DNA of 64,000 nucleotides from Eubacteriales bacterium (GTDB lineage: Bacteria; Bacillota; Clostridia; Oscillospirales; CAG-272), in the NCBI GenBank assembly GCA_045661185.1, contig JAZRFD010000039.1:12713-76712 (forward strand), read 5' to 3'. The notes beneath the pieces were generated by a model, which had not been told where the DNA came from, searched no databases, and saw only the letters and a list, made by a program, of their open reading frames with translations. Shown one piece after another: positions 5,127 to 63,704 of the stretch. Position numbers and translations under genes: made by a program. Within the stretch, counting starts at the first letter, position 1. Each line of letters opens with the position of its first letter.

Positions 5127-5325
5127 TGGCGCATCTTGCTTCGACTCGCTTTGACAAAATCCATCAAAAAATTCAACGCCGAAGGGTGCTACGCAGTTTT
5201 ACGTGAGCAAATATTCGTCGGATACAAGGAAAAAAAGCGAAGCAATATAAGATATTGCAAGAATTTTTTCTGTAGCAGGCGCGGATATTTGCCACATAAA
5301 ACCGTATGAGTTCGGCTCTCTTCGG

Positions 5326-6858
5326 CTATAGCAATCCCCGCATCCAAGAAAGATCCTCGCGCTCCAAAGCACCCGTCAAGCGCAAAAGCAAAAGGTAGAG
5401 AAAAAGCACCATTAAGCAGTGAAGCGTGATCGAAAGAGGGGCGGATGGGATATGGAGGGGCAGGAGAGAGAGCAGCAGCCGCACGGCACAGGTTGCTCCC
5501 ACAATGGAAAGAAGCGGCTTGTAGACCCATTTTGCAAGACGAACAGTCGGGGCGCTGATCGAAAGCAGATGCGTGATGCTGAACACCGTGTTAAAGGTTT
5601 CGGAAAAATAGATGGTGAACAAATACCCGTCAATACCGTATCGGGGCACCAGAAAATACACGAGAATGACCGAGATCAGCGCGTCCGCAATGTTGATCTT
5701 CATCGAATAGACCTGCTCGCCCAGCCCCTTCATCATAGCGTCGGTTGCCGTGTCCACGTACATAATGGGGATCAAGGGCGCTAAAAGGCGGATATAGGTC
5801 GCGGCATCGGTCGCGGGGTAGAGAGCATTTCCAATCTCCTCCGAAAAGCAGATCAAAATGCCCGCCACACCGATCGAAAAAAACGCGGAGAGGGACCAGA
5901 CGCGTGAGATCATGTAGCGAATGTGACGGCGACTGTTTTGTATTTCCGCCTCGGCAAGCTCGGGCACAAGAAGCCCCGAAAACGAGGCGATCAGGGCGGC
6001 AGGGTAAAGGATGACGGGAAGCGCCATGCTTTGAATGCTTCCATAAGCGATCAAGGCGGCGGTGTGGCTGGCACCGCTGTTGCGAAGCCCCTCGGGGATC
6101 AGCACGTGCTGAAGCGTCAGAAGCCCCGAGCGCGCGTAGGTCGTCAGCGCAATGGGGAGCGTGATGGAAAGAAGCTTGCGCGTTTGAGAAACGCCGCACT
6201 CCGACCGCTGAAAGTGCTTTTTTCGGTCCCATTGGTAGAGAATCAGCTCGATCAAAAAGGAAAAGATCTCGGCAACAGCACCACCCAGCACCAAAAGACA
6301 GCAAACGCTCTCCACACTATCGGAAAAAAGGGCGGTCAGTAGAAGCATCGTCGCCGCAATTTTCGCGCCCTGCTCCAAAACCTGCACCGCGGCATTTTTG
6401 TAGGGGCGGCGAACGGCGGTAAAGTACCCGCCCCATGCCGAGGAGAGAGAAATGAGCGGAAGCGTCAGCGATAACAGGCGAAGCGAGGGGATCGTGCGCG
6501 CGTCCTTGAGCCACAGTAGCCCAATCGGTCGGGCGAGCGTGAGAAGAAGGGCGGAAGCAAGACAACCGAAAAAAAGCGCGTACAGCGTGGCGCGTCGCAT
6601 GGCGGGGCGAACGCGCTCGGGATGTCCGTCGCCCACGGCATCCACCACAAGGCGGGTCACGCCAAGGTGGATCCCCGAGGTGGCAAGCGTCAGGGCAAAG
6701 CCGTATACGCCCGAAAGCAGGGAAAACAGTCCCATGGCTTCTGCGCCTGCGCGGTTGGAAATATAGACCTGAAACGTAACACCCACCGTGCGCATCAGCA
6801 GGGAGGCCGCGGTCAGGAGCATTGCATTTTTAAAGAGCTGCTTGGCGTGAGATTTCAT
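5326..6858 (-). CDS. spoVB: Stage V sporulation protein B / MOP-family (MurJ-like) flippase
   Basis: 510 aa with about 14 TM segments. The N-terminus FKNAMLLTAASLLMRTVGVTFQVYISNRAGAEAMGLF is typical of SpoVB. Confidence 0.8.
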   Translation of the reverse strand: MKSHAKQLFKNAMLLTAASLLMRTVGVTFQVYISNRAGAEAMGLFSLLSGVYGFALTLATSGIHLGVTRLVVDAVGDGHPERVRPAMRRATLYALFFGCLASALLLTLARPIGLLWLKDARTIPSLRLLSLTLPLISLSSAWGGYFTAVRRPYKNAAVQVLEQGAKIAATMLLLTALFSDSVESVCCLLVLGGAVAEIFSFLIELILYQWDRKKHFQRSECGVSQTRKLLSITLPIALTTYARSGLLTLQHVLIPEGLRNSGASHTAALIAYGSIQSMALPVILYPAALIASFSGLLVPELAEAEIQNSRRHIRYMISRVWSLSAFFSIGVAGILICFSEEIGNALYPATDAATYIRLLAPLIPIMYVDTATDAMMKGLGEQVYSMKINIADALISVILVYFLVPRYGIDGYLFTIYFSETFNTVFSITHLLSISAPTVRLAKWVYKPLLSIVGATCAVRLLLSLLPLHIPSAPLSITLHCLMVLFLYLLLLRLTGALEREDLSWMRGLL

Positions 6859-7041: not shown

Positions 7042-7227
7042 ATGACGGTCTACGTGTGTGAACTGTGTGGCTATGAGTACGATCCGCGTTTAGGCGACGT
7101 GGATGGCGGAGTAGAGGAGAATACGGATTTTGAAGACTTGCCCGAGAATTGGGTTTGTCCCTTGTGCGGCGCGGGAAAGGAAGACTTTGCAGAGGAAATT
7201 CGCGAGCTGGACGACGAGGATCTTTAA
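7042..7227 (+). CDS. Rubredoxin
   Basis: Two CxxC pairs (VCELCG ... WVCPLCG) with the YEYDP motif. GGAG lies 7 nt before ATG 7042. The ORF track's upstream ATG 7009 has no RBS. Confidence 0.9.
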
Positions 7228-7228
7228 T

Positions 7229-7638
7229 GAAAAAAGCGAGGCAAAAGGTACGTACTCTTAAGGACAGTTTTTGAAATTTAATAGAATACGTTACCTACCG
7301 ACAGGAGGATAGAGGATGTTTTATGTTCTCTGTCCTTTTGTTTATCTCGCGGAAGGTAAAAATAGCCTCCCTTGTGCAAAGGGAGGTGGCACGCGTTAGC
7401 GTGACGGAGGGATTGTAAAAGGTAGGATTTTCGCTAAAAACAATCCCTCAGCCGCCTTCGGCGTCAGCTCCCTTTACACAAGGGAGCCTTTTTTATGTTC
7501 ATCTATGACTTGTCAAATTTCCTGACAAGCACTGCTTTTGTGGACACAAAAGCAAAATACGGCATACCTCTTTTGAGATATACCGTATTCTTGCAAAACA
7601 GTCCTTTAGGGTACGACCCCAAGGCCTCGCTTTTTTTG
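7229..7638. repeat. Nested imperfect palindrome / multi-hairpin element in the convergent intergenic region
   Basis: Outer arms are AAAAAAGCGAGGC (7230-7242) and GCCTCGCTTTTTTT (7624-7637). The second layer is GGTACGTACTCTTAAGGACAGTTTTTG versus CAAAACAGTCCTTTAGGGTACGACC. Inside are at least 8 local hairpins. See findings. Confidence 0.7.
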
Positions 7639-7651
7639 TAGCGGTTTTACG

Positions 7652-8263
7652 TTATGCCAACGCGCCGAGCTGATACACCGCGTTTTCGGCACAGAGCACG
7701 CGACCGTGCTCGGAGAGATAGATCCGCAATAGCGTAGCATTTTCGATTGCTCCGTATTCCGTAATGAATTGCAGCTCATCGGGGGTGGAAAAGGGGCTTT
7801 CGGAAAGAATGGTCAGTAGCAGATAGTAACGGTCAGACACGTCAACGTAAGCGCTGTTGCTGCCTATGTAGCCGATTGCTGACAACCGATGACAGACCGC
7901 GAGAAGCGAGGAAAGATCGGGAAAGCGGTAGGCACATTCGCGGTGAAAGGCACCGCGCAGGCTTTTGGGGCGTAATTGCAGAGATTGTGTCTGCGGGCTC
8001 GCGCTTCGATCACAGCCGCTCGGCATTCGGCTGATGAACATTTCACACCCGCCCTCGCGTGAGGGGAAATATTGTACCGAGATCTGGTGATCGTCCGCCT
8101 CAAAGTCGGTCTGCTTTTTGATCTCCTCTAAAAGATGCTTGAAGGAGCGGTGCATACCTGCACTGTCCTCGGGGAAGGTGTCGGGGTTCAGCTCAAAGTG
8201 GCGCATATCCGTCGGAGTCAGCATGATTTTCAGTTTGCGGTCGCTGATACGTATCAGTTCCAT
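7652..8263 (-). CDS. mecA: Adaptor protein MecA
   Basis: MELIRISDRKLKIMLTPTDMRHFEL is the MecA N-terminal signature. AAAGGAG RBS present. Confidence 0.85.
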   Translation of the reverse strand: MELIRISDRKLKIMLTPTDMRHFELNPDTFPEDSAGMHRSFKHLLEEIKKQTDFEADDHQISVQYFPSREGGCEMFISRMPSGCDRSASPQTQSLQLRPKSLRGAFHRECAYRFPDLSSLLAVCHRLSAIGYIGSNSAYVDVSDRYYLLLTILSESPFSTPDELQFITEYGAIENATLLRIYLSEHGRVLCAENAVYQLGALA

Positions 8264-63461: not shown

Positions 63462-63474
63462 AGCAACCAATAAT

Positions 63475-63704
63475 GATAGAGGCGCACCTATATAAGAGTA
63501 GCCGCTGCGAAATAGCCTGCGCGGGCGTTGCAGCGGGAAAAGGATTGGGTGCCGAAGGACGGGAGGGGCGCGTTCCCGATCCTGGCATTGCGGACAAGAT
63601 CCGCCGTGCTGTCGCAGAAATGCGGAGTGCTATCTTCAACCCGTCATATTCGGATTTTTATTCGAAGGGGCAGAGAAATGCGCTTGCTTTCTCTGCCCGT
63701 TTTG
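63475..63704 (+). promoter_or_regulatory. Lysine (L-box) riboswitch with terminator
   Basis: Conserved L-box blocks appear in order: GATAGAGGCGC, AGAGTAGCC, GGGAAAAGGA, GGGTGCCGAAGG, CTGTCGCAG and GGAGTGCTATC. The terminator is GGGCAGAGAAA..TTTCTCTGCCC plus GTTTTG (63667-63704). The downstream gene is dapA. Confidence 0.88.

Follow-up and report, generated by a model that had tools for sequence, protein, structure and literature searches.

A nested palindrome between rubredoxin and mecA

We analyzed a ~410-bp nested palindrome in a stretch of DNA from an Eubacteriales bacterium (64,000 nucleotides of contig JAZRFD010000039.1, hereafter the window), which a first-pass annotation made from the sequence alone had singled out. 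It lies between two convergent genes: rubredoxin (7042-7227, + strand; Pfam PF00301, E = 1.5e-20), whose stop codon is 2 nt before an A-run, and the adaptor gene mecA (7652-8263, - strand; Pfam PF05389, E = 1.1e-23), whose stop codon is 14 nt from a T-run. As described below, the segment 7243-7623 is a gene-less, cargo-less miniature member of a widespread family of integrative cassettes.

All repeats and hairpins named in the first-pass annotation were recovered by a repeat finder and in the sequence. The outer and inner arms together form a pair of 42-nt repeats (7230-7271 and 7595-7636; 79% complementary, 323 nt between them), and the arms of the core palindrome (7359-7388 and 7465-7494) are 87% complementary. 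Local hairpins were found at 7366-7386, 7390-7403, 7407-7449, 7452-7463, 7467-7487, 7509-7529, 7533-7554 and 7556-7589. For the 421-nt region, the folding energies of the + and - strands are -182 and -179 kcal/mol, compared to -109 and -100 kcal/mol for dinucleotide shuffles (z = -13.4 and -14.2, respectively). Its G+C content is 43%, versus 53% for the window overall. The arm pattern common to both sides occurs twice in the window (0.01 expected), and the palindrome itself is present there as one copy, with many family copies across other genomes. No open reading frame (ORF) with a family match lies inside it, and an Rfam search at relaxed and gathering thresholds returned nothing relevant (best E = 1.5-3, far under the gathering scores).

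The nested appearance results from symmetric layers stacked inside each other: outermost the halves of a terminator, then the recombination arms, next two inward terminators and, in the centre, a gene frame between two similar outward-facing terminators. The assigned features of the window copy are as follows.

7230-7242, + strand: left half of a host bidirectional terminator, A-run (7230-7235) and stem GCGAGGC (7236-7242); perfectly complementary to 7624-7637; predicted left half of attB
7244-7245, + strand: AA at the left junction, predicted crossover dinucleotide (from AA/TT position statistics of family ends)
7246-7271, + strand: putative left recombination arm, consisting of AGGTA and the terminus CGTACTCTTAAGGACAGTTTT (7251-7271), which fits the family terminus pattern exactly
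7272-7346, + strand: left-end module, conserved TGAAATTTAATAGAATACGTTACCTACCGACAGG, then an inward terminator hairpin (7300-7342), then TTTTGTTT
7359-7494, + strand: DUF559 gene frame without its ORF, five hairpins h1-h5; assigned by covariance model and by relatives with the full ORF
7366-7386: h1, minus-strand terminator
7390-7403: h2, frame hairpin
7407-7416 paired with 7440-7449: h3, its arms corresponding to the Shine-Dalgarno arm and to codons of the former C-terminus
7452-7463: h4, frame hairpin
7467-7487 plus T-run: h5, plus-strand terminator
7495-7594, - strand: right-end module, hairpins 7509-7529 and 7533-7554, inward terminator 7591-7554 (minus strand), then TTTTGCTTTTG; kept in right-type termini
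7595-7620, - strand: putative right recombination arm, composed on the minus strand of GGGGT (7620-7616) and the terminus CGTACCCTAAAGGACTGTTTT (7615-7595), which between them give a small terminal hairpin
7621-7622, + strand: AA at the right junction, predicted crossover dinucleotide (same statistics)
7624-7637, + strand: other half of the host terminator, with the stem GCCTCGC (7624-7630) followed by a T-run (7631-7637); predicted right half of attB

A family of cassettes with shared termini

The inner arms (CGTACYCTWAAGGACAGTTTT, with CGTACYCTWAAGGACWGTTTT common to both arms in the window) are the termini of the family. A scan with CGTACNCTNAAGGACNGTTTT of a genome collection containing one genome per species returned more than 119 loci, compared to ~17 expected by chance (our own estimate from pattern complexity). 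Among the matches listed, all were in metagenome-assembled genomes (MAGs) of Oscillospiraceae/Clostridia from animal and human guts, and for many of them a contig end was at most a few hundred bases away. Matches oriented inward displayed the same two interior types as the left and right sides of the window copy, in addition to variants in which a terminator is followed by the promoter-like TGTTATAAT.

Pairing of opposite termini yielded 44 complete elements of 270-3011 bp. The window copy, with 381 bp between the stems (7243-7623) and 21-nt termini at 7251-7271 and 7595-7615, is 83-86% identical to the copies at L026 and L105, which reside at unrelated sites. Its left-end module is kept in ~65 family termini, where the hairpin varies in sequence while pairing is retained. 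The inward hairpin of this module has a folding energy of -24.3 kcal/mol (z = -5.5) and is followed on the + strand by UUUUGUUU. On the other side, a terminator scan flagged the right inward hairpin on the minus strand (-25.2 kcal/mol, z = -8.0; UUUUGCUUUU next on the - strand). In nearly all copies, both mismatches of this hairpin appear as G.U on the strand that reads inward and as C.A on the opposite one. Both end terminators face inward, and transcription from rubredoxin and mecA, whose own terminator is split, is therefore predicted from the sequence still to be stopped.

The long members of the family carry diverse cargo, including a BspA-type leucine-rich repeat protein, MatE with a ROK regulator, an immunoglobulin-like protein, helix-turn-helix regulators, methyltransferases, a XhoI restriction-modification pair, an AbiU2 HEPN protein, a GNAT acetyltransferase, DUF4429-SHOCT and SF0329. 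Other members are cargo-less. The defence genes (XhoI-type endonuclease with N6/N4 methylase, and AbiU2 HEPN protein) are found in the cassettes L015 5706-7966 and L038 1196-3003. No transposase or recombinase was detected inside the cassettes, and no protein was widely recurrent among ORFs of at least 150 aa.

The family is apparently undescribed. No annotated match to it was obtained in plasmid and phage collections. We also found no description in the literature of terminator-loop cassettes with replacement terminators, or of DUF559 as part of a mobile element, although absence from the library is not proof of novelty. Pieces of ~50 nt with ~89% identity to parts of the core module occur in two unannotated human-fecal 'Bacteriophage sp.' contigs in GenBank (MT839611.1 2497-2550 and MT836162.1 8493-8543).

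A 27-codon small ORF at 7316-7399, noted in the first-pass annotation, exists but is not a conserved gene: its start is in the family hairpin with the variable loop, and the first ATG is missing in the closest relative (L026). A gene at this position, such as a type I toxin, was thus ruled out.

The element is flanked by the halves of a terminator

An A-run of at least 5 nt adjoins 103 of the 119 termini on the outside (7.5% at random positions), followed by 7-10 copy-specific bases. When the left flank was compared with the reverse-complemented right flank, an exact common run of at least 10 nt was present in 23 of 44 pairs, compared to 2% of mismatched pairs; more pairs match when one mismatch is allowed. 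This run always ends 7-9 nt before the terminus. Some outer stems contain G.U-type mismatches (L089, L065), as expected of drifting natural terminators. Insertion sites are at the 3' ends of genes, with stop codons often only 0-15 nt away. For 23 elements the genes on both sides could be assigned; these genes are convergent in 12 cases, co-directional in 10 and divergent in one.

In the related locus L002, the rubredoxin stop codon is followed by an intact orthologous terminator, AAAGCGGGG-TGCCTG-CCCCGCTTTTTTT. The window has AAAAAAGCGAGGC-[381 bp]-GCCTCGCTTTTTTT in its place, the stem differing by a compensatory substitution (G:C to A:T). Natural terminators nearby are built alike, such as AAAAAAGCACCGACC-AAAC-GGTCGGTGCTTTTTT in L004. 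Because of the A-runs, the copy-specific complementary flanks, the location at gene 3' ends and the intact counterpart in L002, the outermost arms are the two halves of one bidirectional intrinsic terminator common to rubredoxin and mecA. The first-pass annotation was thus correct in reading them as halves of a single terminator, and the arrangement is general across the family. Its suggestion of a MITE-like insertion (MITE, miniature inverted-repeat transposable element) into a terminator loop was likewise essentially right, the outer arms corresponding to the terminator that is intact in L002 and the interior deriving from a large mobile family.

At the junctions, positions -7/-6 from the terminus are AA in 44 of 63 left-type ends and TT in 17 of 27 right-type ends, where the common strand reads AA. 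The dinucleotide is followed by N-G-G-G-N, so that each half-site reads NGGGN + CGTAC... The two junctions share only AA; the flanks are inverted rather than direct, and no direct target-site duplication of fixed length is present. A crossover directly beside CGTAC (GA) was ruled out, as the base before CGTAC is not conserved. In the window the meaningful common bases are the AA at 7244-7245 and 7621-7622. The AAGG duplication reported earlier is present, but at 7245-7248 and 7621-7624 rather than at 7247-7250 and 7620-7623.

Joining the ends gives ...GTACG-NCCCT-AA-WGGGN-CGTAC..., i.e. two inverted half-sites of ~26 nt around a 2-bp core (~54 bp in total). Such a 54-bp junction would read ...GTACGACCCT-AA-AGGGACGTAC..., and the circular-junction form would be ...CCTTTAGRGTACG-RCYCT-AA-WGGGN-CGTACYCTWAAGG... 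Removal of an element with retention of one AA leaves predicted empty loops of 3-6 nt (GAAA, CAAA, TAAT, and AAAG for the window). Note that this reconstruction fixes the loop only, the stems being mirrored by construction. The empty site of the window copy is predicted to be AAAAAAGCGAGGC-AAAG-GCCTCGCTTTTTTT (restored form TAATGAAAAAAGCGAGGC-AAAG-GCCTCGCTTTTTTTGTAGCGG). The regularity of the junctions fits a serine-recombinase crossover at AA, which we propose as the probable site of strand exchange.

A large serine recombinase adjoins the right end in larger elements

At a number of loci a right-type terminus lies 50-70 nt beyond the end of a 560-570-aa large serine recombinase with the domains Resolvase, Recombinase, Zn_ribbon_recom and DUF4368 (L033, L121, L085, L061, L127-L133, L137 and L138; truncated remnants in L077 and L140). 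Its neighbours encode ParB, a MobA/VirD2-type relaxase, a NikA-like protein, ALP_N and Cys_rich_VLP, the gene set of an integrative mobilisable element. The element carrying one identical recombinase (P0133) is present at no fewer than 3 different flanks (L127, L131, L132) in copies that are >99.7% identical, and the close relative P0125 (L133) adds a fourth site. The recombinase-bearing element is thus mobile. Comparison of the identical copies mapped the right boundary exactly to ...GTACGACTCTAA|, beyond which a different half-stem and T-run follow at each site. The two subtypes of recombinase element and the cassettes have only the last ~27-30 nt at the junction in common, approximately the size of a recombinase half-site. 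A search of viral contigs with the recombinase returned a relative with 54% identity that lacks the family ends.

The DUF4368 domain marks a multi-targeting, TndX-like clade of large serine recombinases (Durrant et al. 2022; PMC10083194). For one member of this clade, 21 attB sites align on a TT core and have T/A-enriched ends (PMC10083194). Serine recombinases of the Tn4451 family require 2-bp identity and no directionality factor, and have low specificity (PMC5704250). Together with these published properties, the presence of the recombinase at the common right end, the multi-site copies of P0133 and the half-site-sized sharing make mobilisation in trans by a DUF4368 recombinase the best-supported mechanism. 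We therefore favour, with a probability of roughly 60% for the explanation as a whole, that the window copy is a non-autonomous cassette in a terminator loop mobilised in trans by such an enzyme.

The proposed mechanism is as follows. The mobiliser would most likely be a DUF4368-type (TnpX/TndX-like, multi-targeting) large serine recombinase supplied by the larger relaxase-bearing elements with the same right end. The two half-sites of the cassette (~26 nt each; 5 nt plus CGTACYCTWAAGGACAGTTTT) would flank the 2-bp AA core. A recombinase dimer would bind each site and exchange strands at AA in the terminator loop; a palindromic terminator, with its A-run and T-run, would supply the symmetric pair of half-sites. 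The inward terminator at each end of the inserted cassette would then stop the rubredoxin and mecA transcripts. By this mechanism the window copy would have been mobilisable, and may still be.

Several observations weigh against this explanation. The 64-kb window contains no recombinase. Matching flanks are absent in about one third of end pairs, and AA is not at the exact position in ~30% of ends. The intact terminator in L002 is from another species, and its loop, TGCCTG, lacks AA. No true empty site from the same strain was found: a metagenome scan with a mecA-side anchor matched neither other strains nor empty sites, and searches for the exact MecA, MurJ-like and rubredoxin proteins of the window retrieved no record. 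Moreover, a left end of the recombinase-bearing elements was not detected within 10 kb in L127, L133, L138 and L140, either with the terminus pattern (up to 5 mismatches) or as a matching stem. A common left arm and a matching outer stem are thus hypothetical for the large elements, whose right end and flank architecture are shared. Finally, the recombinase model leaves the recurrent DUF559 nuclease beside the right end (see below) unexplained. An empty-site search via the host gene beside the L127 element encountered contigs that end before the junction.

The core as a DUF559 gene frame

A covariance model built on 7355-7500 identified ~30 further copies of the core module, sometimes 2-4 per locus. 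At 7 loci (L046, L025, L122, L027, L032, L021 and L092) the same frame encloses a full 121-aa DUF559 ORF (PF04480; NCBIfam PRK09767-like). At these loci the 5' arm of h3 (GGAGGGATTGT) is the Shine-Dalgarno region of the DUF559 gene and the 3' arm (ACAATCCCTC) encodes ...EQSL; h4 contains the stop codon, h5 is the terminator of the gene, and h1 is a terminator on the opposite strand. In the window copy, 23 nt stand where the DUF559 ORF would be. The module runs straight into right-end sequence in the window and in 4 full-length copies with clearly readable downstream sequence. Based on these correspondences, the core in the window consists of the frame hairpins of a DUF559 endonuclease gene, with the ORF itself lost. 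The earlier statement that no protein-coding explanation fits thus requires qualification.

We analyzed the pairing in 26 modules. Of the alignment cells, 87% are paired, and both partners change in 23 of the 36 pairs; 0 of 500 shuffles reached this level, and slid-partner controls paired at 44-59%. G.U pairs outnumber A.C pairs on the sense strand (54 vs 27). Because the covariation exceeds that of the shuffles and G.U exceeds A.C on the sense strand, the core hairpins are selected structures and not a by-product of the DNA palindrome.

DUF559 frames with and without the ORF, in both orientations, are clustered within single elements (L046 2021-2952; L035 542-684, 3354-3487 and 4001-4142; L122 5548-6525). 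Furthermore, the DUF559 gene has a Shine-Dalgarno region complementary to codons close to the 3' end of the same gene, ~350 nt away (L046 2072-2085 / 2425-2437; likewise in L025, L122, L027 and L032), and this pairing covaries across lineages. The gene could control its own translation in this way, or the inverted repeat could delimit the ORF as a unit.

Alternative explanations

The main rival for the mobility function is DUF559 itself. Accordingly, the cassettes would be moved by their own Vsr-like endonuclease of PD-(D/E)XK fold, homing or nicking at terminator hairpins or cruciforms, with gene-less copies being non-autonomous and the recombinase elements merely sharing an end. The DUF559 ORF or its empty frame is indeed the only recurrent internal component (7 full genes, ~30 frames), it runs into right-end sequence wherever the downstream sequence is informative, its hairpins are under selection, and none of the cassettes contains a transposase or recombinase. 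However, no transposition activity is known for DUF559 and our literature search found none; homing does not account for hundreds of unrelated insertion sites; and many cassettes, as well as the recombinase-bearing elements, have the same junction architecture without the module. Symmetric half-sites around a 2-bp core are a signature of serine recombinases. We consider this explanation unlikely. Still less probable is a classical MITE or mobile insertion cassette moved by the DDE transposase of an unsampled insertion sequence with the same inverted repeats. The 21-nt terminal inverted repeats, the small size, the lack of coding capacity and the many copies, often at contig ends, would agree with this. 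But ~120 loci yielded no DDE transposase, there is no target-site duplication beyond AA, and the gene abutting the common end encodes a serine recombinase. The MITE-like label of the first-pass annotation is apt for a small insertion with inverted ends, but not in the classical sense: only 2 bp (AA) are shared, a DDE transposase partner is lacking and the associated enzyme is a large serine recombinase.

An equally improbable alternative concerns the outer stem, which might not have existed before insertion but might be generated by it as an inverted copy of the flank, or be a covarying part of the element. In agreement with this, the stems are often perfect, the A-runs are nearly universal on both sides, and the mecA terminator of the closely related strain L001 has a stem of only 5 bp with the same right half. 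What speaks for a pre-existing stem is the intact orthologous terminator at the same place after rubredoxin in L002, the G.U-type mismatches in L089 and L065, and the location of the sites at gene 3' ends, with natural terminators of the same form nearby. The least probable explanation is that the palindrome evolved in place as a single functional structured RNA or single-stranded DNA structure (e.g. an origin), or arose by local inverted duplication. Despite the extreme fold stability on both strands and the covariation of the core hairpins, this is already largely refuted: Rfam has no match, other loci hold the modules singly or in different combinations, neither of the two interiors is a copy of the other, and the relatives L003 and L002 lack the palindrome at this locus. 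Both the inverted duplication and the large structured RNA had been put forward in the first-pass annotation. Against the former, the two interiors are different conserved end modules that recur in copies in other genomes; against the latter, the nested symmetry stems from stacked modules, even though individual core hairpins covary strongly.

Relation to known mobile elements

Tn4451/Tn4453 (TnpX) and Tn5397 (TndX) are clostridial transposons, mobilisable or conjugative, whose movement depends on large serine recombinases. The recombinase-bearing relatives resemble them and the DUF4368 clade in having a DUF4368 recombinase at one end of a small element with a relaxase. Shared with TnpX/TndX-type systems are also the many insertion sites and a 2-bp core at both junctions between inverted half-sites. 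The core dinucleotide of TnpX and TndX is GA, whereas it is AA here. Further differences from these systems are that the targets described here are recognisable terminator hairpins with copy-specific stems, and that the ends bring replacement terminators. In contrast to Tn4451, most family members are tiny cassettes without a recombinase; to our knowledge, such cassettes have not been described for Tn4451. The window copy itself lacks the recombinase, whose full domain set is seen in the larger relatives. A TT/AA core with A/T-rich outer flanks is a feature in common with the characterized DUF4368-clade member (PMC10083194).

A cis-mobilizable element (CIME) is defined by loss of the recombination and transfer genes with retention of attL and attR (PMC5704250). 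The window copy is similar in that it has no recombination or transfer genes and has kept both ends. Its right end matches the recombinase-bearing elements, including the flank architecture, while their left end was not found within 10 kb. By definition the window copy would thus be a CIME with a MITE-like appearance, a Tn4451/Tn5397-type element reduced to its ends. CIMEs, however, are usually single decayed copies at one specific site, whereas this family has hundreds of copies, many sites and varied cargo, and rather resembles a non-autonomous lineage undergoing amplification. What is of interest is this family, the locus itself being a mobile element that is decayed or non-autonomous.

Like MITEs and mobile insertion cassettes, of which MIC231 of Bacillus cereus is an example, the elements are short, have terminal inverted repeats and fold into long hairpins, and some relatives carry passenger genes without a transposase. 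They differ in the absence of a DDE partner and of a target-site duplication, and in the junction symmetry of a serine-recombinase site. Integron cassettes are likewise small mobile units with 1-2 unrelated genes (defence, surface, resistance-like) and structured imperfect palindromes, and lack their own recombinase. The cassettes described here, however, are dispersed at many terminators rather than arrayed at attI, have two inverted ends each and no attC R/L boxes, and no IntI tyrosine recombinase was seen. IS1397 and ISKpn1 are DDE elements of the IS3 family that insert into the loops of REP/BIME palindromes (repetitive extragenic palindromic sequences and bacterial interspersed mosaic elements), which are repeated-sequence targets. 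In both cases an extragenic palindrome at the 3' end of a gene receives the element in its loop and keeps its arms as inverted flanks. Here, however, the targets are terminators unrelated to one another, and a serine recombinase is the probable enzyme. In contrast to REP/BIME-REPIN systems with their RAYT (REP-associated tyrosine transposase), the hairpin modules travel inside bounded elements, and the gene that they flank is DUF559.

A bolder proposal, which we regard as tentative and rather doubtful, is that in gut Clostridia the DUF4368 recombinase recognises intrinsic terminators by shape and A/T-runs instead of by their sequence, and thereby drives an integron-like dispersed system of hundreds of small cassettes (defence, surface and regulatory cargo, own replacement terminators) in which the DUF559 module is a second, still unexplained part of the machinery. 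If the model holds, terminators would be a general landing pad for a serine recombinase, a structure-defined target available after most operons. Replacement inward terminators would avoid harm to the host, explaining the wide spread of restriction-modification, Abi, acetyltransferase, transporter and surface-protein cassettes in uncultured Oscillospiraceae. The compact attP (~54 bp) and attB (~36-40 bp) would offer a predictable natural target class for genome engineering in gut Clostridia. For annotation, the family accounts for long 'impossible' palindromes between convergent genes and for many contig breaks in MAGs.

The locus in related genomes

Related loci were reached via MecA homologues. 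In L003, rubredoxin and mecA converge with nothing but two ordinary terminators, spaced 107 bp, in the gap, and in L002, L004 and L005 a gene of the metallo-beta-lactamase (MBL) fold lies between them. The palindrome is absent at the locus in all four. The MBL-fold hydrolase (Pfam match to anti-Pycsar Apyc1) is located at L002 3653-4423, L004 3651-4430 and L005 955-1734. Its presence in three relatives and absence in the window and L003 shows that the intergenic spot is variable for other reasons too. The possibility that the palindrome is a decayed copy of this gene was ruled out, as there is no similarity.

In the 98%-identical strain L001, homology to the window begins only at 7624, the inner edge of the right outer arm, and extends rightwards. 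To the left of the breakpoint (L001 713-1030), rubredoxin is replaced by genes for a Zn-ribbon protein and NAD synthase, together with a 290-bp chain of small hairpins, one of which (GGCTCCCTTGACACAAGGGAGCC) resembles h5. This suggests a rearrangement in L001 with its breakpoint at the site of the window's right terminator arm. The mecA-side terminator of L003 (3686-3620, minus strand) is nested, AAAAAGGACC-[GTAATGAAGTGAAC..GTTCACTTCACAA]-GGTCCTTTTTT, and may contain a small insertion or footprint inside the terminator loop.

Elsewhere in the window, ~200 bp between convergent genes (5129-5330) are 94% identical to L002 4929-5131, compared to ~78-80% identity in neighbouring coding DNA. The L002 copy lies at the other end of a MurJ-like gene in the opposite relative orientation. 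This stretch has a weak match at L121 2177-2258 and none in Rfam, and may be another mobile or conserved non-coding element. Rfam recognised a single family in the window, the lysine riboswitch, with an aptamer at 63469-63640 (+ strand; 85 bits, gathering score 30).

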